Positions 1 through 64,000 of a DNA stretch of 64,000 nucleotides are shown here, one piece after another. Position 1 is the first letter of the stretch. Each line of letters starts with the position of its first letter. Origin of the DNA: Ostreococcus lucimarinus (lineage: Eukaryota); NCBI GenBank assembly GCA_000092065.1, contig CP000594.1; one strand, given 5' to 3'. The notes under the pieces are model-generated. The model worked only from the letters and a program-made list of their open reading frames with translations, was not told the DNA's origin and did not search any database. Position numbers and translations under genes: made by a program.

Positions 1-2144
1 ATAGCAATTACCGCTGGATCCCCATTCGGTACTTCTCCCGTAAATAGCACCGAAGGCACGTGTGAATTCGTTACCGACGTCGCGACGAGATTCGGCGGGT
101 CGTAATACATGTAATTTGCCATTCCGCCGACCCATATAGAGTTTTCAAAAAACGTCGCGAGCGCGCTGCGATCGTCCGGATAACCCTCAAAACTGATACT
201 GACGGCCGATATGTACGTACCGGTCGCCGCGAACGCACTGTACGACGGCGCATCGCATTCGATCGTTGTCGAATTCACCAGTTTGGCTGGCACATACACG
301 GGCGAACCGTCGTTCAAAAATCGGCACGCCACGCGGTGCGACAGAGTGTCGTCCGGGGCCCAGGAAGAGTCGTATGGAAACCCAACACCACGAATCGTGA
401 GCGTTGTCCCACCCGCCTTGGGTCCTCTTGAAGGGGAAATATCATCGATTTCTGTCACGGAGAAGCTTTGGTACGAGATTTCTGCGTCCGAAACATTGTA
501 CGTCCCTGTGAACAACGCACCCATGCTTGGGATCGTCGTCATCGCACCGATCGGTCTTGTCGACGCCGTCGACCCTTGAACTTCCATGCACGCCGATCCG
601 ACGCAGTTGGCATCCGGGAATACTTTGACTTTTACTATGCGCGTCGGAGCATTCACGTCTGACGCGTCCTGGCTCGTGAGGACGTACAGCGTCCCTCCAC
701 TCGCACCCCCATCGCTCACTGTCTCGATGGCGAGCGCATCCCTAACTAAACTACCACTCGTTCCTAACTTGACGTGTTCTATCGCCGAGCTCGTGTTGTT
801 GAATGATTTTCTAACCCGGTATACGCACGAGATGCGACTGACGCACGTTGCGCCGCACATCGCGCCGTTGTAAGGCGCACTCGATGTCGCGACGTAAGCA
901 TAATCTCCCATCACTCCGAGCGCGGTAAACGCGGTATACCTTCCGAGATAGCTCGACGAAAGCAAAGAATGACCTTCGCACGCCGCGTCGATGGCGGTGG
1001 CGTCTTTAAAGTACAGCTCCCCATCCGCCGCGATTACGCTCTCGCTCGAGTACGGATTCAGGCGAACAATCGCGGGATAATCTTGCGCCGAACTAGCCTT
1101 CGCGCGACCTGCGAGAAACATATCGACGCCACCACCAGTTGTGCCGACCGTGACCGCCTCGGTGAACTTACCTGCGTCTCGTCTGTTGTGGCACGCCTCG
1201 CACGCCGCGCGCAGCGTCGGCAACGATATATCCTTCGCGCTCGGCGCTGCGTCGATACCGCTCGAATACACCAGCACGCGACCAAGCGCGCTCACCGCTG
1301 TGGGTGTTACTTTTAAAATCAAATCATCGTCCGTGCCCATGGCCGCAACGTCGACGATGTATCCATCCGTGGTTTTCTCGTGACGATTTCTAATCGTCCC
1401 GCCGCCCGACGCCAAATCTGACCACACGACGTAACCGTATTCAACTGGCTGCCCCGCCCTTCGCACCCACGCGTTTGCGATGGCGTATATCACATCACTC
1501 GTCGCGCTCGCGACGACGATCGGTCCGCGCATGGCTATCGTCGACCACCCGTCGCTCGTCGCCGCGTCGCCGCGCGGATGCCCGCACGACCCCTTCCATC
1601 CGTTTGGCACAGGATCATCCACGTCGAGCACGATCGTCCCATTCGCCTGCGGCCGCGCGGGCCAACGCGTGGGTTCATTCGCGTTCCACGCCCGCGCGCT
1701 CGCATCGCCCAACCGCGCGTAATGATCCACGCACAGCGCGTCTCGCCCGCCCATCGCGACGACTTCTCGCGTCCCCGCCGCGCGCGCCGTCGCGCACGTC
1801 ACCTCCCGCGGCGCCGCCCCGACCCCCGTCGCCATCACCGGCGCCATCGCCGCGTACCACGTCTCCCGCACCGTCCTTCCATCGACCTCGACGACGCGCT
1901 CGAACGTCTCCACCGCGTCTCTCGCCGCGCCGCAGTCGACGCCGTCCCGGTCCGCGCGGCAGCGACACGTCTCATCGATCTCGCACGTCCCGTACGACCG
2001 CTGCGCCAGGCACTCGCGCGGGCAAAAGCTATACGCGTACCCTTCGCGCGCGCTCGCGCCCAGTGATCCGCACAGCAGCGCCAGCGCGCGCGTCACCGCG
2101 CGCGTTCGTCGCGCCGCGTGTGTCGGTTGCGCGCGCGACGACAT
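1..2144 (-). CDS. Partial CDS, N-terminal ~714 aa. Secreted protein with signal peptide, one EGF-like Cys-rich module and several IPT/TIG domains; continues beyond window start.
   Basis: Manual minus-strand translation has no stops from 2144 down to 1. ATG at 2144..2142 gives MSSRAQPTHAARRTRAVTRALALLCGSLGASAREG (signal-peptide-like), then CPRECLAQRSYGTCEIDETCRCRADRDGVDCG (EGF-like). Repeated IPT/TIG-like segments follow, e.g. ISPSRGPKAGGTTLTIRGVGF and VACRFLNDGSPVYVPAKLVNSTTIECDAPS. Absent from the ORF track because it runs off the window edge. Confidence 0.6.
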   Translation of the reverse strand, partial: MSSRAQPTHAARRTRAVTRALALLCGSLGASAREGYAYSFCPRECLAQRSYGTCEIDETCRCRADRDGVDCGAARDAVETFERVVEVDGRTVRETWYAAMAPVMATGVGAAPREVTCATARAAGTREVVAMGGRDALCVDHYARLGDASARAWNANEPTRWPARPQANGTIVLDVDDPVPNGWKGSCGHPRGDAATSDGWSTIAMRGPIVVASATSDVIYAIANAWVRRAGQPVEYGYVVWSDLASGGGTIRNRHEKTTDGYIVDVAAMGTDDDLILKVTPTAVSALGRVLVYSSGIDAAPSAKDISLPTLRAACEACHNRRDAGKFTEAVTVGTTGGGVDMFLAGRAKASSAQDYPAIVRLNPYSSESVIAADGELYFKDATAIDAACEGHSLLSSSYLGRYTAFTALGVMGDYAYVATSSAPYNGAMCGATCVSRISCVYRVRKSFNNTSSAIEHVKLGTSGSLVRDALAIETVSDGGASGGTLYVLTSQDASDVNAPTRIVKVKVFPDANCVGSACMEVQGSTASTRPIGAMTTIPSMGALFTGTYNVSDAEISYQSFSVTEIDDISPSRGPKAGGTTLTIRGVGFPYDSSWAPDDTLSHRVACRFLNDGSPVYVPAKLVNSTTIECDAPSYSAFAATGTYISAVSISFEGYPDDRSALATFFENSIWVGGMANYMYYDPPNLVATSVTNSHVPSVLFTGEVPNGDPAVIA

Positions 2145-2542
2145 CGGCGTCTTCGTCGCGCGTTCGCGTCGTCTTCAGCGCATCGCACTCGATGTCCGCG
2201 CGTCGGGCGATGCGCGACGGTGCGTTTTATCCGCGCGTCGCGTCGCGTCGCGTCGTCGCGTCGCGCGCGCGTCGCGGTTCGGCGTCGCGCGTCATTCCCC
2301 CGCGGCTCAGTCTCGTTCGGCTCTTGGATACAACACGGAACGTGCGCGCACATCGAATCGTCGCGCTTGACCGGCGCGCGGGAGACGCGCGCGCGGCGAG
2401 AGCGCGACGCCGCGCGCGCGATCGCGGTCGATCGTGATTCGAACCGCGCGCGACGGCGCGCGGGAGCGAACGCGGACGTCGACGCGCGGGCGCGAAGGCG
2501 CGCGCGTCGGGAGACGCGAGACGTCTCTTCGTATCCCTCGCG

Positions 2543-3850
2543 ATGATGCGAATCGTCGTCGTCGTCGTCGTCGTCGCGAGCGCGGCGCGCGTCGAGCGCG
2601 CGCGCGCGTCGACGATCGTGGACGCGTCGAGCGACGTCAGAACGGGCGGTTTCGCGGAGGTGCGCGGTCGGGCGCTTCGCGGGACGAGCGACGCGGAGGC
2701 GTGTCGAGCGCGCGCGTGGGCGACGGGCGCGGACGCGCCGGGCGGCGCGTCGACGGCGGAGGCGACGTGTGCGGCGATCAGTGCGACGTCGGCGACGCGA
2801 TGCGAGGCGGCGATGGCGTCGTTGAAGTGTCGGCTCGCGCGGGCTGGCGCGCGCGCCCGCGCCGAGGCGTGTGACCTCGCGAGCGCGGACGATTGCGAAC
2901 GGTGCGTCCTGCGCGCGCTCGGACGAGGCGCGAGAGGACGCGGAAACATGAACGACAACGATTGGGACGACGCGGTGGAAGACGAGGCCGCTTTTGAGAG
3001 TGACCGCGCGATTACGCTGGACCGCGCGGTGGAGTTTTCAATGTACGTCGACGAAACGCACGCCATCGACAGCGATTGCAAGTTTTTGGTCTCCATGTTC
3101 AGAGCCGAGATGGCATCGCGGGTCGTAGAGTCATTCTCCACGCTGCTCGCAGAGGCGCAGCGCGAGGCCAAGGCGAGGGCGGAAGAAATCACCATCGCGC
3201 TCGCGGAAATTGACGAAGCGGCTCGCAGAAACGCTCGCGACGTCGAGCAAGCGGCGATGGCGCTCGACAAAGTACGCCGCGACCAGCTCGAGTTCGCGAC
3301 GCGGTTTGAAACGTTTGCGGCAAACTTGAACGCCGCGCTGGACCGCGTGGAGCGCGCGTCGCGCGGCGCGCTGCGCGCCGCTCGATTCGCCGCCGAGCTC
3401 GCGAAGCGCTGCGCGGGAATCGTTTCCGAAACCTTCGCGTCGTTGGTTTCGGTTGAGATGATTTTCGTGCGCTTCATCGTCATCGCGTTCGGAACCACGC
3501 GCCCGGCTTTACGGCGTTGCTGCTTTACGGCGTTACTCGTGGAGTGGATGTTACGCGCCGCGCCGCGAACGGCGGCGACGACGCCCTCCAATCGTCTTCG
3601 CCTCGGTCTCCTCTGCGCGTTCGCGCCCAGGATCTGGACGTACGCGAAAGAGCAACTACATCGCTCGCGACGCGACGACGCCGAGACGGGTCGCGTCGAC
3701 GTCGGCGCGAAACCGCGATCCGGTCGTCGCGCGCGAGGCGTCCCCGCGGCGCGAATCGAACCGTCGCCTCGAGTCCCCGAGCCGACGATCGCATCGCCGC
3801 GTCGCGCCAGCGCGCGCCTTCGCGCGACGAAGACGACAAAAATAATTTAA
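2543..3850 (+). CDS. Hypothetical protein; alternative start ATG 2948 (MNDNDWDD...). The central part has ordinary protein composition; both ends are low-complexity.
   Basis: ORF 2543..3850. Region 2948-3480 encodes a non-repetitive sequence (FSMYVDETHAIDSDCKFLVSMFRAEMASRVVESFSTLLAEAQREAK...). The antisense ORF 2227..3591 is Ser/Ala low-complexity. The N-terminus contains a (GTC)8 microsatellite. Confidence 0.3.
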   Translation: MMRIVVVVVVVASAARVERARASTIVDASSDVRTGGFAEVRGRALRGTSDAEACRARAWATGADAPGGASTAEATCAAISATSATRCEAAMASLKCRLARAGARARAEACDLASADDCERCVLRALGRGARGRGNMNDNDWDDAVEDEAAFESDRAITLDRAVEFSMYVDETHAIDSDCKFLVSMFRAEMASRVVESFSTLLAEAQREAKARAEEITIALAEIDEAARRNARDVEQAAMALDKVRRDQLEFATRFETFAANLNAALDRVERASRGALRAARFAAELAKRCAGIVSETFASLVSVEMIFVRFIVIAFGTTRPALRRCCFTALLVEWMLRAAPRTAATTPSNRLRLGLLCAFAPRIWTYAKEQLHRSRRDDAETGRVDVGAKPRSGRRARGVPAARIEPSPRVPEPTIASPRRASARLRATKTTKII

Positions 3851-9728: not shown

Positions 9729-10643
9729 TCAGTTCTTCTTCTGGCCACGCCTCAGCTTCATCAGCACGACCGGCGCGGAGACTTTAACGCGAATATCCAA
9801 CTGATCGAGATCGTGCCCTCCCTCGACTAACCCCCACTCCTCGATCTGCGCCTCCTCCTCGACGCGCGCCGCCGCGATGGCTTCATCCACCGTCAGCCCT
9901 CCTCGAAGCGTCTTCAAACTTATCAACAACGACTTCGTCGCCGCGCTCAGCGCGAACGCGCACGTCAGCTCCCACGGGCACATCGCGTGCAACCGCCGCC
10001 GCAGCACCTCCACCGTCTTCTCGCTCGTTCCCGGTCCAAAGATCGAATCCGACGTCTCCACCGGTCCGAACTCTCGCTCCGCCCACGCCACGATCGGATC
10101 GTGCGCCTTCGCCTGCCTCGCCGCCGTCGCCTCGTCCGGGCTTCGCACCCGCGTCGCGTCCGTGCCAAAGTATTTCAGCAGCGTCTCCACGTGCACCCGT
10201 CGCGTCTCCGCGTCTCCCATGTGATCGATCGCCGTCGCGCTCAGCGACGTCAGCGGCATCGTAAACGGCGCGATGCGTTCGCCCTGCGCGTCCCACTCCG
10301 CCGCGACCGCGCGCGCCAATCCCTCCGTCGCGAACGCGTACTCGTTTCGCTTCGGCGTTCGCAGCGCGCGCGCGTCGAGCTCGACGCGCCACGTCCCGTC
10401 GCGCGCGTCGCGTTCGCGCGCGTCGACGCGCTCGTAAAACCTCGGCGCCGTGCCGTCGGCGCCCATCGTCATCGCGACGCGCTCGGACGACGCCTCGCCG
10501 CGCGTGCGCCCGACGCGCTTCGCCGCCTCGGCGCGCGCGCGCAGCGACGCGCTGCGCGCGTCGCTCGCGTCGACGGGCGCTCGCGACGACGCCGCGCGTC
10601 TCAGCGCCGCTCGGACGCGATCGAGCGCGCGACGCGCGCGCAT
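9729..10643 (-). CDS. ATP12: ATP synthase mitochondrial F1 complex assembly factor 2 (ATP12/ATPAF2).
   Basis: ATG at 10643. RFYERVD....PFTMPLTSLSATAIDHMG...LTCAFALSAATKSLLISL is a typical ATP12 family sequence. Confidence 0.85.
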   Translation of the reverse strand: MRARRALDRVRAALRRAASSRAPVDASDARSASLRARAEAAKRVGRTRGEASSERVAMTMGADGTAPRFYERVDARERDARDGTWRVELDARALRTPKRNEYAFATEGLARAVAAEWDAQGERIAPFTMPLTSLSATAIDHMGDAETRRVHVETLLKYFGTDATRVRSPDEATAARQAKAHDPIVAWAEREFGPVETSDSIFGPGTSEKTVEVLRRRLHAMCPWELTCAFALSAATKSLLISLKTLRGGLTVDEAIAAARVEEEAQIEEWGLVEGGHDLDQLDIRVKVSAPVVLMKLRRGQKKN

Positions 10644-10703
10644 GGCGTCGCGATGTGCCGTCGCGATGCGCGCCGGCGCGCGCGGGCGTCACTCATTCGC
10701 GAC

Positions 10704-12413
10704 ATGTCGAGCGACGACGCGTTCGAGGACGCGTTGGACGACGCGCGCGACGACGCAGACGACGCCTCGAGCGACGACGCGCGATCGGACGCGTTCGAGG
10801 ACGCGCTCGGCGCGCACGCGGCGCGATTTCCGTTGCACCGCGCGGCGTTCGAGAACGACGTCGACGCGGTGCGAGCGCTGCTGGCGCGCGACGACGTCGA
10901 CGCGAACGCGCGCGACGACGCCGGGCACTGCGCGTTGCACGTCGCGGCGCTGAGGCGCGCGGTGGGGGCGACGCGGGCGCTGGCGGCGAGCGCGCGGGTG
11001 GCGACGGAGGCGCGAGACGCGAGGGGCTGGACGGCGACGCGGTTGGCGACGGATCGAAGGGCGCGCGCGTGCGTCAGAGCGCTCGTGGAGGCGAACAGAG
11101 CGAGAGAAAAGAGGTTGGCGCGAGAGATTCGACCGGAGATGGCGCGGGCGGTGGAGGGCGTGGGGGATTTTGAGACGCGCGCGGCGTGGCGGTTCGGTTC
11201 GCGAGTGTTGGCGCCTTTGATTAAGATGGTGGCGCCCAGAGACGCGTACGCGGTGACGTGCGTGGGGAAAAAGCTGAGAATCGACGGCGAGTTGAGAGGG
11301 ATCGATTCCGAGGCGTTGGTGCGGTCGATGATGCCGAAATGGCGACGAGGGAAGTTTAGCTTGATTTACGACGGCGACGCGGGCGAACGCGCGGCGCTTT
11401 GGTTCGTCGATCACGAATCGCGAGAGGTGGTGAACGCGATGGAAAAACCCACGAGACGGGACGGCGATGATGCCGACGCGGCGTCGACGAGCGATGCGCC
11501 GCCGCTCACGGAGGAGGAGATGATTGACGCGATCACGGACGCGTTGCTCGCCGAGGGTGCGGCGAAGAAGAAGGTGCGAACGGAGGGTTTCAAATTCGCA
11601 CCGGTGAAAGGATGGATCGCGGGAAAAGCCAGCGCGTGGATTGGAGGACGCAAGGCGGAAATTTGGGAGGCGACAGCGAAGCTGGCGCGCGAGACTGTGG
11701 CGCCGGGAGGGGGATTTAAACTCGACGGTTCGTTTGAGGAGTACGTGGAGAGCGCGAACGACGCGCGAGAAAACGTCGTCACGCGCGCACCTTTGGGCGA
11801 GTCTTCGAAAGATAAATCCGGGTTAAACATCGATGATAGTAAGGACATGCCACAGCGTCTTCGTAAGATGTCGGCGCGATGTTGGCTCGTGCGCGACTTC
11901 CCTTTAAAGGCGAGTCAGGCGTCGCAGATTTTGGACGTCTTGGAGCGTGCGAATAAAAACGCCGCGCACGTGAACCGCGTGGTGAAGTATTGGTGCTCAA
12001 ACCACGAAAACATGTTTCCGGTGAAGATCCAAGTCCCGCTTATGCTCACGATTTACGCCCAAGTGCAATTTAAAGATTTCAAAGCGCTCGACAAGCGCGC
12101 TCGGGAAGCCAAGTTGCGAGACGGCTTCTTCGAAATTCCGTCGGATTATCGCGTGAAATCTGTGGATGAGATGCTCGCTGAAGTGGAAGAGCGCGCAAAT
12201 CGTGACATGGAACGCATCGAGGCGCTGGATGAGTCGCTGGACGTCGATAACGAGACGGAAGAAATTCGACAGTTGCGCGTCGAACTAGAACGCCTGGCGA
12301 AAAACACGTCGGGCGAAGACGAAGGCGACGATGAATACGAGTTTGACGACGACGACGACGACGAAGACGAAGACGACGAAAACTTAGATGCCGATAGAAT
12401 GAATGTACGCTAG
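10704..12413 (+). CDS. Ankyrin repeat domain 13 (ANKRD13)-like protein: N-terminal ankyrin repeats, GPCR-chaperone domain, acidic C-terminal tail.
   Basis: ATG 10704. FPLHRAAFENDVDAVRALLAR...GHCALHVAAL (ankyrin). CWLVRDFPLKASQASQILDVLERANKNAAHVNRV...FPVKIQVPLMLTIYAQVQF matches the ANKRD13 conserved core (FPLSL...FPVKIEIPLFHV). The upstream part of ORF 9987.. is antisense to ATP12. Confidence 0.8.
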   Translation: MSSDDAFEDALDDARDDADDASSDDARSDAFEDALGAHAARFPLHRAAFENDVDAVRALLARDDVDANARDDAGHCALHVAALRRAVGATRALAASARVATEARDARGWTATRLATDRRARACVRALVEANRAREKRLAREIRPEMARAVEGVGDFETRAAWRFGSRVLAPLIKMVAPRDAYAVTCVGKKLRIDGELRGIDSEALVRSMMPKWRRGKFSLIYDGDAGERAALWFVDHESREVVNAMEKPTRRDGDDADAASTSDAPPLTEEEMIDAITDALLAEGAAKKKVRTEGFKFAPVKGWIAGKASAWIGGRKAEIWEATAKLARETVAPGGGFKLDGSFEEYVESANDARENVVTRAPLGESSKDKSGLNIDDSKDMPQRLRKMSARCWLVRDFPLKASQASQILDVLERANKNAAHVNRVVKYWCSNHENMFPVKIQVPLMLTIYAQVQFKDFKALDKRAREAKLRDGFFEIPSDYRVKSVDEMLAEVEERANRDMERIEALDESLDVDNETEEIRQLRVELERLAKNTSGEDEGDDEYEFDDDDDDEDEDDENLDADRMNVR

Positions 12414-15171: not shown

Positions 15172-15342
15172 ATAAAAACCCGTCTCGCACTGCGCACCAT
15201 ACGTGATATCAACAAAACCCGTCTCGCACTGCGCACCATACGACGCGAGCAGTGATATGAAAACCCGTCTCGCACTGCGCACCATACGACGCGCGCAGTG
15301 ATATCAACAAAACCCATCTCGCACTGCGCACCATACGACGCT
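15172..15342. repeat. Four tandem copies of a ~47-bp unit with core AAAACCCGTCTCGCACTGCGCACCATACG, preceded by TGTATAAAAAC, in the divergent AATF/psaD promoter.
   Basis: Copies start near 15175, 15215, 15258 and 15311. They read tgatatcaacaaaaccc(g/a)tctcgcactgcgcaccatacgacgcg(a/c)gcag, with few substitutions. Confidence 0.85.
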
Positions 15343-16527: not shown

Positions 16528-16977
16528 ACAGACGGCTCGCGCTCGCCGCGCACCGAGGGTTCGGTCGTCGTCGTCGAGTCGCCGCTCGAGTCAGATGTCC
16601 GTCGATGTGTTTCACTCTTCGCGATGCGAAGTCAACGCGAGATGGCGCTCGTTTGAATTATTAGAATTCTTCGACGTCCCTCGCGCTTTGCGTCGCGTCG
16701 AGCGCGCTTCGACGTTCGCGGCGTCTGATTTCTTCGCGCGGCGTCGCTCGACGCTTCGATCTCACCCTCTGCGCGCGATCGTGATGTAAATCACGCCTCC
16801 TAGCCAAACTAATTGCAGTAACACACAGATTTTCACTGTTCATCCGCGCGCGCGCGTTCGCCCGCCCGCGCGCGATCGCCGGTCGCCGGTCGAGATCTTC
16901 GCCGCGATGACGCTGGCTGCGCGCCGTGGAATGACGCACATCGTATTTTAGAGCCATTATATATGCAAGATACGTTT

Positions 16978-16988
16978 TTAGGGTTTAC
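16978..16988. promoter_or_regulatory. Telo-box-like interstitial telomeric motif TTTAGGGTTTA, followed by TATAAT, ~210 bp upstream of the CHL27 ATG.
   Basis: The sequence is acgtttttagggtttacctataatttcgcg at 16973-17002. It matches 1.5 units of the terminal TTTAGGG repeat. Confidence 0.3.
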
Positions 16989-17199
16989 CTATAATTTCGC
17001 GCGATCGGATCTTATCTGAGAAAATCTATACTGTTTGCGCATACGACGCGGACGCCCTCGGGACGACCCGCATCGGATAAGCGCCGACGATCGTCACAGC
17101 ACGCCTCGCGTTCGCCGCTCCGTCCGCTCGCGACGCCGTGACGAAAGCAGACGCACGTAACACTTTGCGCACGCACCACCGCACGCCTCGACGAGCGAC

Positions 17200-18426
17200 A
17201 TGCACGCGTTCACCATGCGCGCGAGCGCGATGAAGACGCCGGTGGCGAAGATGACGTCGAGATCGCGATCGGCGACGCGACGCCAAGGCGCCGTGGTCGT
17301 CCGCGCGGCCGCGGCGACGGACGCGGAGACTGGGATCAAGAAGATGCGCGAGGGTATCAAGGAGGCGGCGAACGAAAACTTGTTGACGCCGCGATTTTAC
17401 ACGACGGATTTCGACGAGATGGAGCGCCTGTTCAGCACGGAGATCAACCCGAACTTGGACGAGACGGAGATTAACGCCATCTTGAACGAGTTCCGCGAGG
17501 ATTTCAACCAGAAGCACTTCGTGCGCAACGATGAGTTCAAGGCGGCGGCGGATCAGATCAAGGGTGAGCCGCGCAGAATTTTCATCGAGTTTTTGGAGCG
17601 CTCGTGCACGGCGGAGTTTAGCGGGTTTTTGTTGTACAAGGAACTCGGCCGCAGATTGAAGAAGACGGCCCCGGCGGTGGCGGAGATCTTCACGTTGATG
17701 TCCCGCGACGAGGCGCGTCACGCTGGGTTCTTGAACAAGGCGATGAGCGATTTCAACTTGGCGCTCGACCTCGGGTTTTTGACCAAGAACCGCCAATACA
17801 CGTTTTTCCAGCCGAAGTTCATCATGTACGCCACGTACTTGAGCGAAAAGATTGGCTACTGGCGTTACATCTCCATCTACCGCCACTTGCAAGCGAATCC
17901 GGACGAGCAATTGTACCCGTTGTTCAAGTACTTTGAGAACTGGTGCCAAGACGAAAACCGTCACGGCGACTTCTTCTCGGCGATTTTGAAGGCGCGCCCG
18001 GAGTTGATCAACACCACCGAAGCGAAGCTCTGGTCTCGATTCTTCTGCTTGTCCGTGTACGTCACCATGTACTTGAACGATCACGGCCGCAGTGAGTTCT
18101 ACGAATCGCTCGGTTTGGACACGACGCAATTCAACATGCACGTCATTCACCAAACCAACAAGACGACGGCGACGATTTTCCCGCAAGTCATCGACACCTA
18201 CAACCCGGAGTTCAAGGCGCGTCTCGACAAGCTCGTCGGCGTGAACACCCAACTCCAAGCCATCGGTAAGGGTGAAGGTTCGGAAATCATGAAGAACTTG
18301 CAAAAGGCGCCGCTCATCGCCACCTTCGCGGGTGAGTTGATCGGTTTGTTGGCCATGGCTCCGGTCGACGCCGGTTCCATCGACTTGACCGGCGTTCCGG
18401 AATCCGACCCGTCCTTCATGTACTAA
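17200..18426 (+). CDS. CHL27: Mg-protoporphyrin IX monomethyl ester (oxidative) cyclase (CHL27/CRD1/AcsF), plastid precursor.
   Basis: ATG 17200. [14 protein letters not shown]...[17 protein letters not shown]...[16 protein letters not shown]...ENRHGDFF shows the di-iron carboxylate motifs of AcsF. Full-length single exon. Confidence 0.95.
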
Positions 18427-58397: not shown

Positions 58398-58738
58398 ACG
58401 AGGTACTCGGCGTCCATCGACCTGTAGCCTTCCCTTGTAATCGACGAATGGACGGGTTTGCCTCTCTCGGGGTTTTTGTCTGAAGTGTCCATGAAATCTT
58501 ACTAGTTTAGTGGGATGGGACGTGTCTGAAATTTTTAGTGGGATGAATCAGACCGACCCGCTCTCGCGCGCGCGCGCGCCTAGGGTTGTGCGTACTACAT
58601 CTTCACGCGCACTCGCTATCGTGACGAACGTATCGCCCTCGACGTCACCACAGAAAGTGTAACACCGAACGTGGGAATCGTATTGTGGCGCGATGATCGT
58701 TTTGTTATATTCTTCATTGCCACTAGAGCGCGCATACT

Positions 58739-59794
58739 TCAATCAACGTGGTAGCGCTGTCGCGCGTTCTGGTGGGCGTAGTTGCCATACGCCGCGCGTT
58801 GCCCGATTCGAGCGCGGCGTCTATCTTCCGCTTCGTCAAGACGAGCGAGTGCTGGACCGGCGTATTTAACGAGAGCGAACGTGCCGCCCGCGGCCCCGCC
58901 GTACAAGAGCGCGAGAACACTCGCGACGACGCTCACGGCCGAAACCAACGCGACGAGGAAGAACGCCACGCCGGACCAAATCGACGTGCTAAATGAAGAT
59001 ATGAGCCCTGGCAACGCAAATGCGTAGGAGAATATCGCGCTGAGCATTCCCATCGTGAAATTGCTCACGGCGATAAACGCCCATCGCAACAGGAACGATA
59101 TCGTCGATTCGTCGCTCTTACCGCGGAGCATCAAATGTAACCCGTCCCAAAAAGTCGAGCGCGTCGCGAACACTTTCCCACGCTCGTAGCTTCGCTTAAA
59201 CAGTGCCTTCGCGTCGCCCACGCCTAGCTCGGACCACAGACCAAGCTCAGAACGAGCTTCGCGCATCGCGGCGTCCCGTTTCCGCTCCTCGACTCGTAAC
59301 GCTCGAGCGGCGTCTCTCTGACGTTTCTTCGCTTGCTCGATTCGCGAACGCTGACTGGGCGTCGCCGTAAACCGCCACCCAAACGGTGTCACCGCCCTCA
59401 ACTCGCGCTCTGCGTCGTAATACGACGACGATACCCGTCTTAACGCTTCGCCGATTTCTTCGTCGACGCGTCGCAAAGCGTCGTCGTAACGCCGCTGCAT
59501 CGTCGGCGTTATCTCCACCGGCGCGCGCGCGTAAAACGCCACGTATATTCCCAGGCAGTACAACATCAACGTCCCAGTCGTCTTGGGCGTTTTCATCGGC
59601 TTCCACCGTCCCAGAGCGCGCACGAGAGCCCCCGCCGTGGATGTTTTCTGCCGACTCGATGTTGTTCGCGTCTCCACGATCGCGCGCGTCGTCGCATCTC
59701 TCTCGCGCGCATCCATAGCGGGCGTGGGTGTCGTATTCTCCGTGAGTCCGTCAGCGTTCATCGCGCGTCGCGCACTGAGCAAATCTCCAGCCAT
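58739..59794 (-). CDS. Hypothetical membrane protein (several C-terminal TM helices), function unknown.
   Basis: ATG at 59794; the track start 59797 is a GTG. Hydrophobic segments LMLYCLGIYVAFY and FIAVSNFTMGMLSAIFSYAFALPGLISSFSTSIWSGVAFFLVALVSAVSVVASVLALLYGG. Confidence 0.5.
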   Translation of the reverse strand: MAGDLLSARRAMNADGLTENTTPTPAMDARERDATTRAIVETRTTSSRQKTSTAGALVRALGRWKPMKTPKTTGTLMLYCLGIYVAFYARAPVEITPTMQRRYDDALRRVDEEIGEALRRVSSSYYDAERELRAVTPFGWRFTATPSQRSRIEQAKKRQRDAARALRVEERKRDAAMREARSELGLWSELGVGDAKALFKRSYERGKVFATRSTFWDGLHLMLRGKSDESTISFLLRWAFIAVSNFTMGMLSAIFSYAFALPGLISSFSTSIWSGVAFFLVALVSAVSVVASVLALLYGGAAGGTFALVKYAGPALARLDEAEDRRRARIGQRAAYGNYAHQNARQRYHVD

Positions 59795-59828
59795 CACTCG
59801 TCACTGCGCGACGGTCCGACGGCCAGGC

Positions 59829-60428
59829 ATGGACGCCGAGACGGTGACGAGCGCACTGCGCGCGGCGTCGAAAGTAGGTTCTGCCGCAGTGGTCATCATC
59901 GAGGTGTGCGACGCGAGCGACGATCCGTCGTCATCGACGTTCGTGTTTCAACGGAAAACGGCTGGATATCCCGCGGCACACTTCGTCGGTTCGCTGTGTT
60001 TATTTGGCGGCAACGCTGAAAAAGAAGACGCGACGGCGCGCGCGACGTTGGAGAGGGAGCTCGCAGAGGAGCTTCCGGACGCGTTCGTAAGCGTCGTCAT
60101 GGCTAACGCGCGCGCGCACGGGCGGTACCTCGTTGCGGACGCGAAAGGCGCGTACGCTTTCATCGCGTGCGCGTTCGCGGCGAGGATACGCGCGACCAAC
60201 GTCGACGTCGACGCGCTAGTCACGGATGAAGGCGAATTAGCGGTATTAAGTGTCAGTCAGTGTGGTTGTGAGTCGTTCGCGTGGTCGTACGATCGCGTCT
60301 TCCGGGACTATCTCGTTCTTCGCGATGGCCCGCACGACGTCGTTGAGGATGCACAAGGCGAACGGCGCGATGAAGCCGTCAAAATATCCGACGACGCGGA
60401 CGTCGGCGAATGGGCGGTACTCGTGTGA
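59829..60428 (+). CDS. Hypothetical protein, possibly a divergent Nudix-fold hydrolase.
   Basis: ATG 59829 (MDAETVTSALRAAS...). Degenerate Nudix-box-like segment GGNAEKEDATARATLERELAEELP, compared with GX5EX7REUXEEXGU. Low certainty. Confidence 0.35.
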   Translation: MDAETVTSALRAASKVGSAAVVIIEVCDASDDPSSSTFVFQRKTAGYPAAHFVGSLCLFGGNAEKEDATARATLERELAEELPDAFVSVVMANARAHGRYLVADAKGAYAFIACAFAARIRATNVDVDALVTDEGELAVLSVSQCGCESFAWSYDRVFRDYLVLRDGPHDVVEDAQGERRDEAVKISDDADVGEWAVLV

Positions 60429-60489
60429 ATGATACTGTAGAATTAGCAACGGTAAATTATATTATTTCAACTTGTAGAAGGATGGCTGT

Positions 60490-60561
60490 ATTTATTGAGT
60501 TTCACGGTATCATTTATTGAGTTTCACGGTATCATATTTATTGAGTTTCACAGTATCATTC
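60490..60561. repeat. Three tandem copies of a ~24-bp AT-rich unit (TTTATTGAGTTTCACGGTATCAT) in the convergent 3' region between the Nudix-like gene and the P2X gene.
   Basis: The sequence is ggctgtatttattgagtttcacggtatcatttattgagtttcacggtatcatatttattgagtttcacagtatcattcgtt. Confidence 0.8.
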
Positions 60562-62356
60562 GTTACCGTCTTCGTCGTTAAAGTACTCGCGCATCTTTTT
60601 CACGAGCGCTTGCTCTTCTTTGTCCATCCTGATGATCTTCCTCAGCATGTCGTTGTCCATCGGACCTTCAGTGGTCAACTCGACCCATTCTTCCAAATCG
60701 ATTTTCACGTTCTTGAGTTGACTGTAAGACATTCGCGGCAAACCCTTGGCGTAGCGCTCTTGCGCGTGGCGATCGGCGGTGAGCATGATGTATTTGGACA
60801 TTTGTCTGCACTCGTCAAGCGTGAGACGACGCGATTTGAACTTGTCCGCGTCGAAATTTTCCGATCCCCTTTCGGCGACAGACATTCCGTCGACGCTGTG
60901 GAACGCCTCGACGAGGAGTTCGTAGATTTCTTCAATGTCCAAACCGTCGCCGCTACGCTTGGTGTCCGCGGCGCGGAAGGAGTTCACCGCCATCGCGCCT
61001 TGGATGGCGTACTTTGCGGCTTCGCGTTCAAAGCTCGCGGGCTCCAACATGTGGTTGGAGTAGACGAGTGAACGCGTACCGAGTCCGTACATCGCGACGA
61101 TATCGCAAATCGAGCCCGCGACCTTCAACAGCACGAGACCAGAAACGAGGACGTTGATCAAATACACGTAGTTCACCGAACCAATGATTCCGCTCGTGGT
61201 GACGTCGATGAAAACGCCGTAAGCGTACATGTTGATAAATGTCCCTGTCGGTTTCCCATCGTCCAGGTCGATGGGATCGTCGAGGTCGGTAATCGTCGAT
61301 CGGTACTGGATGCGCTGGCCCTTGGACGTCCAATCGATAGAAGGCTCGATTTCGAGCACGGCATACGGACTATCGCCGTCGGAGATGTCGTCCGAAGCGC
61401 TCGCGGTGTGCAGGTTGTAGTTGTAGTACTGAAGCTTCGCGTTGATGCGCATACCAGCGAGACGGGCCATGGGGGTCACGCTCGCGCTGCCGCCCTTGCC
61501 GTAAAACACGGATGGGTCTCTGCCGGCGAACGCCACTTGATCTTTGTACGTCTTATCGAGGTCGATGTTGGCGACGTCGAGAATATCCTTCAGCTTGAGA
61601 GAGATGTACTGACCGGCTGGGATAATTTTCAAATTCGTCGAAGATCCGGGTCGGCGCACGTACGTCTTCGGATTCGCGGCATTCGCGAGACCTGAGAGCG
61701 TGTCAAACTCATGAGAAATCCCGATGCTCGAGTGCTCGGCGCCGATGGTCAACCAATCGGTTACGCTCTCATAATAGCAAACGCCGTTCGATCCAGCCAC
61801 GCTCACGGGGTCCACATTGCCCGCACCGTTCGTAAAACCGCCATAAGCCACGCAGTTACCAGAGGGTTTCAGGGAGCGATGAGTAATCGTCTCGGTCACG
61901 TGCGTCGTGATGAACATACCTCCCGCCGGTTCTTTCGAGATGATTTCATCCGGCGTCAAGTAACCGCACTTGACGTTGTCGTACACCCAAGCAGTGTCAT
62001 AGTTGAACGCGTACGACGAATTCAGCGTCGCAGACGCAGCGCTTGCGCACGGCAGCACCGGGTACGTCTTCCCGTCGGTGTACGTCTTGGTCGTCGCCGC
62101 GGTGGCGGCGGCGGCGTCCACCTGCGCGGTGTAAAAGTCGTCGTTCCCGTTCCCCCAGTTCGTCACTCGACCGATCGGGACTTCGGTCCGCAGGTACGTC
62201 TTCCCGCGTACCAGAGCATAGACGACGTAAAACACGATGACGGCTTGCAGCGCGACGTTCAGAAGCGCCAGTCTCCAATCTATGATCTTCACGAACTTGG
62301 ACGTCTTGTAGCCCATCTTGCGCGACAGCGCGGTGGCGAGCGTGACCCACCCCATG
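60556..62356 (-). CDS. P2X: P2X receptor-like ATP-gated cation channel (two TM helices and a large Cys-containing ectodomain) with a ~230-aa C-terminal cytoplasmic extension.
   Basis: ATG at 62356 (MGWVTLATALSRKMGYKTSKFVKIIDWRLALLNVALQAVIVFYVVYALV). The YxTxK pre-TM1 motif and TM1 are present. The ectodomain has conserved Cys/Gly-rich segments. The second TM is VNYVYLINVLVSGLVLLKVAGSICDIV. An acidic tail follows. The upstream part of ORF 60556..62751 is a non-ATG extension. Confidence 0.7.
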
Positions 62357-62472
62357 ACTCGCTGACGGCGAACGCGAAGTGACGCGTCCAAGTTGGATGT
62401 TTGCTTGATTCCCCTCGAACGCCGGATATCGCCGCAAAGGTCGTCGCGTCGGTCGGTCGGCGGCGGCGCGAC

Positions 62473-63381
62473 ATGACGGTCACCGCGGAAAAGACATCGA
62501 ACGACTTCTTCGCCATGGTGGACGCGTTCAGGATGGATGCGGGGCGAGCGGTGAAGGTGACGGGAAAAGTCGTTGAGTTTGACGATGACGCGGCTGACGC
62601 GGCGACGGAATGCTTTCGCGGTGACGAAGACATCGAGGACACGTTCGAGACGACGTACGACGCACTTCGGGTGTGGCGAGCGCAGAACGCATCGACCTCG
62701 GATGTCGACGCGTTTCACGCGTTCATGGTTTCGCTGCGACAGCGTCCGCAAGCTCGATGGCAGTGCCTCGTCGCCGCGCTCATGAGCGTGCAGTGTTTGG
62801 ACAAAGTGGCGCTGCGAGCGTTCGAAACGTTGCGAGATTCTACGCTAGACAGAGAAGTGACGCTAGAGGCGATCGCGGCGATGTCGACGCGCGAGCTCGA
62901 GCAACATCTGTCGACGTTAAACTTGTTCCGCGTCAAGGCGAAGTATATTCGAGCGTGCGCAGACGTCATTCGGCACAAGTTTCGAGGCGAAGTACCTCGC
63001 ACAGTGGGAGCACTCAAGACGTTGCCTGGTGTAGGGGACAAACTCGCGCACTTAGTCGCGTCAGTTTCGTACGGCGGCGACGAAGACGGCTTCGCGGGAA
63101 TCGTCGTTGACACGCACGTAAAACGCGTAGCGAAGAGACTCGGTTGGGCGCAAGCGGGCGACGATGTGGAAAGTGTGCGCATGTCGGTGCAGGCGCGCGT
63201 CAAGAGAGAGGAATGGGAAGCCGCGACGCTCGGATTGATAGCGCTTGGACAACGATTTTGCCACGCGAAAGCGCCGGCGTGCGCGGCGTGTCCAGTGAAC
63301 GCGTCGTGTCCGAGCGCGCCGCGGACCTACATCGACGCGCGCATCGACGAGTGCTTCAAAGACGGCGAATATAGCGACTAG
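62473..63381 (+). CDS. NTH1: Endonuclease III homolog (NTH1; HhH-GPD base-excision DNA glycosylase with [4Fe-4S] cluster loop).
   Basis: ATG 62473. LPGVGDKLAHLV...GIVVDTHVKRVAKRLGW (HhH-GPD with catalytic Lys/Asp). The C-terminus is CHAKAPACAACPVNASC (Cys-X6-Cys-X2-Cys-X5-Cys FeS motif). Confidence 0.85.
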   Translation: MTVTAEKTSNDFFAMVDAFRMDAGRAVKVTGKVVEFDDDAADAATECFRGDEDIEDTFETTYDALRVWRAQNASTSDVDAFHAFMVSLRQRPQARWQCLVAALMSVQCLDKVALRAFETLRDSTLDREVTLEAIAAMSTRELEQHLSTLNLFRVKAKYIRACADVIRHKFRGEVPRTVGALKTLPGVGDKLAHLVASVSYGGDEDGFAGIVVDTHVKRVAKRLGWAQAGDDVESVRMSVQARVKREEWEAATLGLIALGQRFCHAKAPACAACPVNASCPSAPRTYIDARIDECFKDGEYSD

Positions 63382-63814
63382 CAACGATAGGAAACAGAGC
63401 GACGAATATAACAAAACGATCATCGCGCCACAATACGATTCCCCACGCGCCGCCGTCGTCGGCCCCGGTCTCCCAGCGCGCCGTCGTCGCCTCCCCAAAC
63501 CGCACCTATCGAGATGTCGATCACCTATCGAGATGTCGATCAAACGAAAGTCGCACGGGCAGTCGCGGAGAACGATGACGATGAAATGTAGCGCCACGCC
63601 AACGATGAATATCTCATGTATCTATATTCTGTTTGCGGTGCCGTGCTGGTCGATGAGTGATGGCCGCAGGGTGTCGTGAAGGTGCACAGGAAGGATGCGA
63701 ATGCTAGTGACTTTTCGGGTTTAGTACGACCCAGAGAACCTAGGGTGAGGTGTAATAAGTATTAGCTAGCCGGTCGGTTACGGCACTTCTCCCGAAGCGC
63801 CTCCCTCCCTCATG

Positions 63815-64000
63815 CTTAGGGTTTAGGGTTTAGGGTTTAGGGTTTAGGGTTTAGGGTTTAGGGTTTAGGGTTTAGGGTTTAGGGTTTAGGGTTTAGGGTT
63901 TAGGGTTTAGGGTTTAGGGTTTAGGGTTTAGGGTTTAGGGTTTAGGGTTTAGGGTTTAGGGTTTAGGGTTTAGGGTTTAGGGTTTAGGGTTTAGGGTTTA
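63815..64000 (+). repeat. Telomere: about 26 perfect (TTTAGGG)n repeats, G-strand 5'->3' toward the window end, running to the edge.
   Basis: The sequence is catgcttagggtttagggtttaggg... and continues to 64000, preceded by the C-rich ctccctccct. It is the plant/green-algal telomere repeat type. Confidence 0.95.

Follow-up and report, generated by a model that had tools for sequence, protein, structure and literature searches.

A structurally plastic Ostreococcus chromosome end with a short subtelomere and an inversion polymorphism bounded by a 43-nt inverted repeat

In yeasts, segments flanked by inverted repeats are found in two orientations, as in the flip/flop MAT switching of Ogataea, Komagataella and Ascoidea or the chrXIV polymorphism of Saccharomyces cerevisiae (PMC6692504, PMC9731477). 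In Ascoidea rubescens and K. phaffii, one of the repeat copies lies beside a telomere, and the orientation of the segment differs between strains (PMC6692504, PMC9731477). Site-specific switches, such as the bacterial invertons and the 2-micron FLP/FRT system, are bracketed by much shorter inverted repeats, and subtelomeric polymorphism and healing are described from the chromosome ends of yeasts, Plasmodium and plants. Here, we compare with these systems a chromosome end of the marine green picoalga Ostreococcus (Mamiellales).

The window, i.e., the whole stretch of 64 kb that was analysed, encodes TOC159, a condensin subunit, glutamate 5-kinase, prolyl oligopeptidase, genes of the ORC2 neighbourhood and other eukaryotic or plastid-related proteins. 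The best matches among named relatives are proteins of O. tauri, with an identity of 53% for NTH and 76% for glutamate 5-kinase, and a Bathycoccus peptidase that is 52% identical to that of the window. Given these O. tauri relatives and the alignment of the O. tauri scaffold KZ155793.1 to the window (65-76% nucleotide identity, same genes in synteny), we assign the window to the nuclear DNA of an Ostreococcus other than O. tauri. A sister species, used below for comparison, has ~90-94% nucleotide identity to the window. The right-hand end of the window is very probably the natural terminus of a nuclear chromosome, with a spacer of 434 bp, a structurally plastic end and an invertible last 4.7 kb. 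Its features, in window coordinates, are the following:

58673-58715, plus strand: inverted-repeat arm on the left, 23 bp past the stop codon of the 340-aa gene
58716-63400: block B, the invertible 4.7 kb, with four genes (340-aa, NUDIX-like, P2X-like and NTH)
58739-59761, minus strand: 340-aa gene, in block B
59829-60428, plus strand: NUDIX-like gene (weak Pfam NUDIX match)
60556-62355, minus strand: P2X-like ORF (Pfam P2X N-terminal, TM1 region, 32.8 bits; weak P2X4 match near TM2)
62401-63381, plus strand: NTH, an endonuclease III/NTH1 homologue and the last ORF (first ATG at 62473; Pfam HhH-GPD, 5.8e-17)
63382-63815: non-coding subtelomeric spacer, 434 bp, GC 0.55
63401-63443, minus strand: right arm of the inverted repeat, 43 nt, 19 bp after the NTH stop
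63444-63500, plus strand: C-rich tract, whose reverse complement matches the 191-bp repeat unit of the sister species (blastn-short, 16/16 and 15/16 nt)
63503-63542, plus strand: 19-bp tandem duplication, CACCTATCGAGATGTCGAT x 2.1 (TRF)
63533-63590, plus strand: indel-polymorphic segment of 54-58 bp
63635-63815, plus strand: telomere-adjacent 181 bp, holding the telomere-like 8-mer GGGTTTAG at 63717
63816-64000, plus strand: telomere array (TTTAGGG)n (TRF period 7, 26.4 copies, 100% matches, no indels)
Pre-telomere motif: CGCCTCCCT

Block B resembles the yeast flip/flop segments in being bracketed by an inverted repeat, in occurring in both orientations and in having its breakpoints inside the repeat. 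It differs from them in the length of the arms, 43 nt here versus ~2-4 kb in yeasts, and in the absence of mating-type genes (Pfam detected HhH-GPD, the P2X N-terminal region and a weak NUDIX). Moreover, clonal switching and telomeric silencing are features of the yeasts, and for block B the two orientations come from the window and from metagenome consensus contigs. In the size of its repeats, the locus is closer to the site-specific switches, in which short inverted repeats of tens of base pairs bracket a segment found in both orientations. However, unlike FLP/FRT and invertons, the 43-nt repeat has no obvious paired half-sites around a spacer, and no recombinase or invertase domain was found in block B or its neighbour (Pfam recovered only HhH-GPD, P2X N-terminal, a weak NUDIX and SMP). 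Since no recombinase is encoded nearby, membership among the site-specific inversion switches is not supported. We regard the locus as a chromosome end whose subtelomere is short and plastic and whose inversion polymorphism is bounded by an inverted repeat.

The two arms are complementary at 42 of 43 positions, with a perfect core of 40 nt (GGGAATCGTATTGTGGCGCGATGATCGTTTTGTTATATTC), and they are the only two copies of the 43-nt repeat within the window. The sequence also reads as carrying an internal direct sub-repeat, ATCGT(A/T)TTGT. Between the arms there are two divergent gene pairs, 340-aa (minus)/NUDIX-like (plus) and P2X-like (minus)/NTH (plus). We retrieved metagenome contigs with the proteins of NTH and of the 340-aa gene and with a repeat 30-mer. 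They come from different samples and from MEGAHIT (k119-141), SPAdes-style and JGI assemblies, and those named by k have a final k of 119-141, greater than the length of the repeat. With A for the proximal flank and T for the telomere-side spacer, the window has the order A-repeat-B-repeat-T (O1), and the opposite orientation is A-repeat-inverted B-repeat-T (O2). Block B was found in both forms in the metagenome contigs, at 97-99.9% identity, and the four possible junctions have identical breakpoints in 26 loci and the window (L020 and L024 in these counts are two pieces of one contig):

J1, A joined to the 340 side: 18 loci, window counted
J2, T joined to the NTH side: 17 loci, window counted
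J3, A joined to the NTH side: 7 loci
J4, T joined to the 340 side: 6 loci

Complete O2 contigs are L001, L002, L011 (which has its own telomere) and L021, and the complete O1 contigs include L004-L006, MDSW01090625.1 and L039-L048. Three mixed contigs (L003, L009 and L010) join junctions of both forms, which suggests that both orientations co-occur in single samples, a reading that applies to the sample and not to a clone. In marine metagenomes this species is very abundant, and its 340-aa protein is indexed, in exact form, in 590 blocks of the contig collection. Metagenome contigs are a population consensus, possibly chimeric, in which flipping within a single clone and a difference between strains are not separable. 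When the block B sequences were clustered, O1 and O2 did not separate, all pairs of these consensus and perhaps chimeric contigs being ~0.1-2.4% apart, a result that neither proves nor excludes recurrent inversion. Linkage between a spacer indel and the orientation was also considered as evidence and set aside: both spacer forms occur with both orientations, but chimeric paths are possible because the stretch from the repeat arm to the indel, arm included, measures ~132 bp, more than most of the k-mers used.

Two other explanations could account for finding both orientations. The first is that the 4.7-kb block has a single natural orientation, the other pair of junctions being an assembly artefact at the 43-nt inverted repeat. 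Inverted repeats do create branch nodes in de Bruijn graphs, multi-k assemblers begin below k=43, the mixed contigs cannot be single molecules of either pure orientation, and, by coordinate arithmetic, several long contigs end a few hundred bp from the left arm. Against this, both complete orientations were recovered repeatedly, by different assemblers and from different samples, with a final k (119-141) exceeding the repeat; O1 is represented by the window and at least 15 contigs, while L011 combines O2 with a telomere of its own. Besides, O2 matches an ancestral adjacency, that of NTH and an SMP-domain gene, in the sister species and O. tauri, both of which lack the repeat, and an artefact seems very unlikely. 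The mixed contigs and the co-occurrence in single samples would also be expected if each cell had two copies, that is, if the two orientations were paralogues generated by a large segmental duplication, with one copy inverted, rather than alleles. We find this scarcely credible: the proximal flank is common to both forms over at least 10 kb in the fetched loci (98.5-99.5% identity, in contigs of up to ~48-84 kb), and a duplication of tens of kb would be needed in a compact genome of ~13 Mb (the size of the O. tauri assembly). Furthermore, the window has a single copy, and one and the same T flank, beside a telomere, is joined to both forms.

Recombination between the 43-nt arms would be the most likely cause of this inversion polymorphism. 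A repeat of 43 nt is short for efficient homologous recombination in eukaryotes. The orientation determines which 3' gene end is nearest to the array, that of NTH in O1 (434 bp from its stop codon) and that of the 340-aa gene in O2 (~380 bp in L011). A more speculative idea, which we regard as improbable, is that block B works as a flip-flop switch, with the arms recombining recurrently within lineages and telomere-position silencing altering the expression of NTH/P2X versus 340-aa/NUDIX. Each inversion would then swap which of the two pairs sits a few hundred bp from the telomere. If true, the locus would represent, in an alga, a counterpart of the yeast flip/flop switches with unusually short repeats.

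Comparison with related genomes shows which of the two orientations came first. In the sister species and in O. tauri, NTH adjoins the SMP-domain gene, as it does in O2, and blastn-short found the 43-nt repeat in neither. In addition, the 191-bp subtelomeric repeat of the sister species abuts the 3' end of the 340-aa gene and has 15-16-nt matches to the C-rich tract of the window. Because of this adjacency and these matches, the O2 order (telomere-T-340...NTH-SMP) is the ancestral one, and the NTH-last order of the window is derived. The earlier note took NTH as the last gene, which is correct for the window, but the inverted orientation present in nature puts the 340-aa gene last.

The sister species has the order S1(28.7-36.7 kb)-P2X/NTH-inverted(58.4->39.8 kb)-NUDIX-G5K/ORC2-340-telomere, in which P2X/NTH have an internal position and the G5K/ORC2 segment separates the NUDIX-like gene from the 340-aa gene. 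Judging from gene order, at least two nested inversions would be needed between this arrangement and the O2 form of the window species. A comparison of contigs L012-L015 and L025-L030 with window 28.7-63.4 kb shows the terminal ~27 kb to be rearranged relative to the sister species. A comparison of L025-L027 with L028-L030 uncovered another difference. In some of these sister contigs, the 340-aa gene is 98.7-98.9% identical to that of the window (58737-59800) with neighbours at ~93-94%, and in the others the gene is ~91% identical. The pattern may mean that the terminal gene was exchanged, or underwent gene conversion, between the two species.

The array that closes the window is of the Arabidopsis type. 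The earlier note had described a perfect (TTTAGGG)n from about 63815 to the window end with its G-rich strand outward, and both points are borne out: TRF reports 26.4 perfect units at 63816-64000 on the plus strand, reaching the last base, with the G-rich strand 5'->3' toward the end and unique DNA on its 5' side. A search for the TTTAGGG 14-mer (up to one mismatch) gave 25 matches, all of them in 63815-63996, versus none expected from 100 shuffles, and this is the single perfect (TTTAGGG)n array in the 64-kb window. Outside it, the window-wide search located telomere-like 8-mers just at 16977-16987 and 63717. The former is an 11-nt exact stretch of the telomere unit (TTTAGGGTTTA) located just outside the ORFs 17026-18303 (minus) and 17200-18426 (plus), and it may be a telo-box-like promoter element.

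The POT1 protein of O. lucimarinus binds GGGTTTAGGGT (PMC2794166), which indicates that the Ostreococcus lineage uses TTTAGGG, and a telomere-to-telomere assembly of O. tauri exists (bioRxiv 10.64898/2026.07.10.737489). The window telomere is a standard Arabidopsis-type one in a lineage known for it, and in this respect it is already-known biology. Compared with the Arabidopsis-type telomeres of Viridiplantae, the array itself is no different, having the same repeat unit, orientation and position beside terminal genes. It would be made by telomerase, and its capping function can be presumed from what is established for such telomeres. Degenerate proximal units are common at the junction of land-plant telomeres. 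The window junction has none, and the border between unique DNA and the array is abrupt (...CCTCCCTCATGC|TTAGGGTTTAGGG).

Mirror-image CCCTAAA arrays stand at the start of four related contigs. L011 is a 47.9-kb MEGAHIT k141 contig with 97-99% identity to the window. A (CCCTAAA)n array opens it, 125 bp of different sequence come next, and then the reverse complement of window 63632-63401. In O. tauri, L017 (scaffold KZ155793.1) starts with ~21 CCCTAAA units placed 96 bp upstream of the NTH ATG. In the sister-species contigs L025 (166 kb) and L030, a distance of 0.6-2.9 kb separates such arrays from the 340-aa orthologue. Subtelomeres of less than 1 kb were found at three of the four related ends examined and for this reason look usual in the genus; the exception is L025, whose first called gene lies 1.2 kb from the telomere and whose 340-aa orthologue lies 2.9 kb from it. 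Four independent contigs, one conspecific, two of the sister species and one of O. tauri, terminate at this chromosome end in the repeat of the window, which makes a true terminus very likely. With these ends and the Ostreococcus genes of the window, the earlier description of a eukaryotic, plant-type chromosome end stands at the level of sequence.

Wild genomes of the same species differ in what lies beyond this point. The spacer is common to all conspecific contigs as far as window 63634, except for the polymorphic 63533-63590. Past the shared spacer, some ends reach a telomere after 128-181 bp, and in other genomes NTH is followed distally by 4.6 kb to ~9.6 kb of additional DNA with genes. 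The type to which L008, L048 and the window belong diverges from a second type (alpha) just after the degenerate motif CTGAAACTAGGGTTAGAAACTAGGG, and it is the former that meets the telomere in the window. Alpha (L039 and L041-L044, from five samples, with 99.5% identity over 2.7 kb) continues for at least 6.4 kb in the fetched locus, and its contig has ~3 kb more. A third type, beta (L040, three samples), branches upstream of the motif and continues for 4.6 kb with HSP20, MgtE, Myb and ABA4-like genes. L011 also branches upstream of the motif, reaching its telomere after 125 bp, as do L021 and L002, in which short interstitial telomere-like stretches are followed by other DNA. The alpha extension (L039 1-6400, L041 1-3800) has a GC content of 0.48-0.52, compared with 0.61 for the window, and among its ORFs are a polysaccharide pyruvyl transferase and several without a Pfam match. 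Presumably, it resembles the low-GC hypervariable outlier chromosomes of Mamiellales.

Joins made by the assembler at telomere-like motifs might account for part of the alpha and beta extensions, but the presence of alpha in five independent samples counts against this. The chromosome end is real but structurally plastic. Its history would include repeated breakage, telomere healing or capture, and recombination. As in the subtelomeric polymorphism and healing of yeasts, Plasmodium and plants, strains share a core and differ distally, and short interstitial telomere-like scars stand at the points of divergence. What sets this end apart is the tiny scale, hundreds of base pairs of spacer, and the lack in the window of multicopy subtelomeric gene families or long repeat arrays, while the sister species has the 191-bp tandem repeat.

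The spacer itself would be a patchwork of the NTH 3' flank, a repeat arm, a relic of a subtelomeric repeat unit, the 19-bp duplication and an indel-riddled tract. From the NTH stop to the array there are 434 bp, in good agreement with the subtelomere of ~440 bp proposed in the earlier note. The same note had reported a twofold 20-bp duplication at ~63503-63545, which is real, although TRF gives 19 bp x 2.1 at 63503-63542; all conspecific contigs keep it as far as 63532. It also regarded 63382-63814 as unique apart from that duplication and a C-rich tract. Both elements exist, but the segment holds in addition the inverted-repeat arm at 63401-63443, and apart from this arm we found no second copy of 63382-63815 within the window. 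No tRNA or credible Rfam family was detected in the last 6-9 kb. The proposed lack of a repetitive buffer is right as to size, a few hundred bp, but the C-rich tract shares its 15-16-nt matches with the subtelomeric repeat of the sister species, to whose unit it is probably homologous. In the sister species, the first ~600 bp of L027, L028 and L029 consist of this ~191-bp tandem repeat, most units carrying CCCTAAACCCTAAA and a GACGACGACGGCGCGGAGACACAAGGGGACGAC motif. As the repeat abuts the 3' end of the 340-aa orthologue, the sister species has a real subtelomeric satellite.

The indel-polymorphic segment is present in the window, L001, L002, L011, L021 and L048 and absent from L004-6, L008, L009, L020 and L039-L047. 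Farther out, the join 63634/63635 is a deletion junction, at which the window lacks ~430 bp of the L008-type contigs, including the degenerate telomere-like motif at which alpha diverges. The sequence ...GAAGTCTGCGGTGCCGTGCTGGTCGA(C/T)GAGTGATGGCC, with which the tails of L048 and L008 close, corresponds to window 63638-63672, and this match makes the window an L008-type subtelomere with an internal deletion of ~430 bp. Given these tails, the last 181 bp of the window no longer look private.

Because the window stops within the array, the latter might be an interstitial telomeric sequence with unique DNA going on past the window end. The alpha and beta contigs, conspecific with the window, do continue past this region in other strains, and short interstitial telomere-like motifs are present here, e.g., TTTAGGGTTTTGGTTTAGGGTTTAGGGTTTGAGAG in L021. 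However, all the interstitial motifs seen in the fetched contigs consist of at most ~3 degenerate units, compared with at least 26 perfect units in the window array. Moreover, both continuations branch upstream of the last 181 bp of the window without passing a long array, and the four related contigs end at this chromosome end in arrays of similar assembled length. We consider an interstitial array highly improbable. None of the contigs fetched via NTH, the 340-aa protein or the repeat 30-mer crosses the window junction at 63815. In all likelihood, going by the related ends, the array is the true chromosome terminus and the window stops inside it. A different question is whether this terminus is long-standing or a recent truncation healed by de novo telomere addition. 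Healing would fit the abrupt passage from unique DNA to perfect repeats without variant units, the ~430-bp deletion relative to L008-type contigs and the extra distal DNA of other strains. The same pattern appears at the NTH end of O. tauri, where the telomere of L017 stands at a point from which L016, L018 and L019 continue for at least 350 bp. Yet the last 175 bp of the window (63641-63815) continue a sequence also found in L008 and L048 and are not a private breakpoint. Recent healing is a possibility that we judge unlikely but not negligible, and it is compatible with a natural terminus, refining that explanation rather than replacing it. As for O. tauri, where L017 1-250 was compared with positions 1-460 of L016, L018 and L019, the DNA that continues in the latter three includes a small LZ3wCH-like ORF, and in the strain of L017 the end seems to have been truncated and then healed by the addition of a telomere.

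NTH, the gene closest to the array in the window, is the last gene, with its stop at 63381 as the earlier note had it, and its identity is confirmed by the HhH-GPD match and by matches (~1e-27) to the PDB structures of bacterial endonuclease III and human NTHL1. The translation has the motifs LPGVGDK, which is the helix-hairpin-helix with the catalytic Lys, and VDTHV, with the aspartate, and it reads as containing the iron-sulfur loop C-X6-C-X2-C-X5-C (CHAKAPACAACPVNASC). The neighbouring ORF at 60556-62355 would code for a divergent P2X-like protein. That NTH and P2X sit within 2 kb of the telomere is only partly true, because the P2X-like gene starts 1.46 kb from the array and its body reaches out to 3.26 kb, NTH being 434 bp away. 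The NUDIX-like and P2X-like genes converge, and between their 3' ends, at 60489-60560, a unit of 22-24 bp is repeated three times (TATTTATTGAGTTTCACGGTATCATT). This repeat appears to be length-polymorphic, since the contigs differ in the length of block B (4639 to 4854 bp) and BLAST alignments are interrupted at ~60503-60559.

The telomere fixes the window as an Ostreococcus chromosome end and is nothing new by itself. Block B, in turn, is a concrete, abundant and PCR-testable inversion polymorphism mediated, or at least bounded, by a 40-43-nt repeat. It adjoins a telomere, in a genome that is among the most compact of free-living eukaryotes, at a site where several alternative ends segregate in the ocean. 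If the block flips within clones, it would bear on the minimum repeat length for ectopic recombination in green algae and on whether closeness to a telomere regulates genes in picoalgae. If it does not, it is still of use, as a convenient natural marker of population structure in Ostreococcus and as a caution when reads are recruited to a reference at this locus.

Elsewhere in the window, a 46-bp tandem repeat at 15203-15341 (2.9 copies, 89% matches, TRF score 236) is the strongest besides the telomere among the matches listed. Two stretches, 2001-3000 and 10001-11000, have a GC content of 0.73-0.74, compared with the window mean of 0.61, and contain CG-rich low-complexity repeats.
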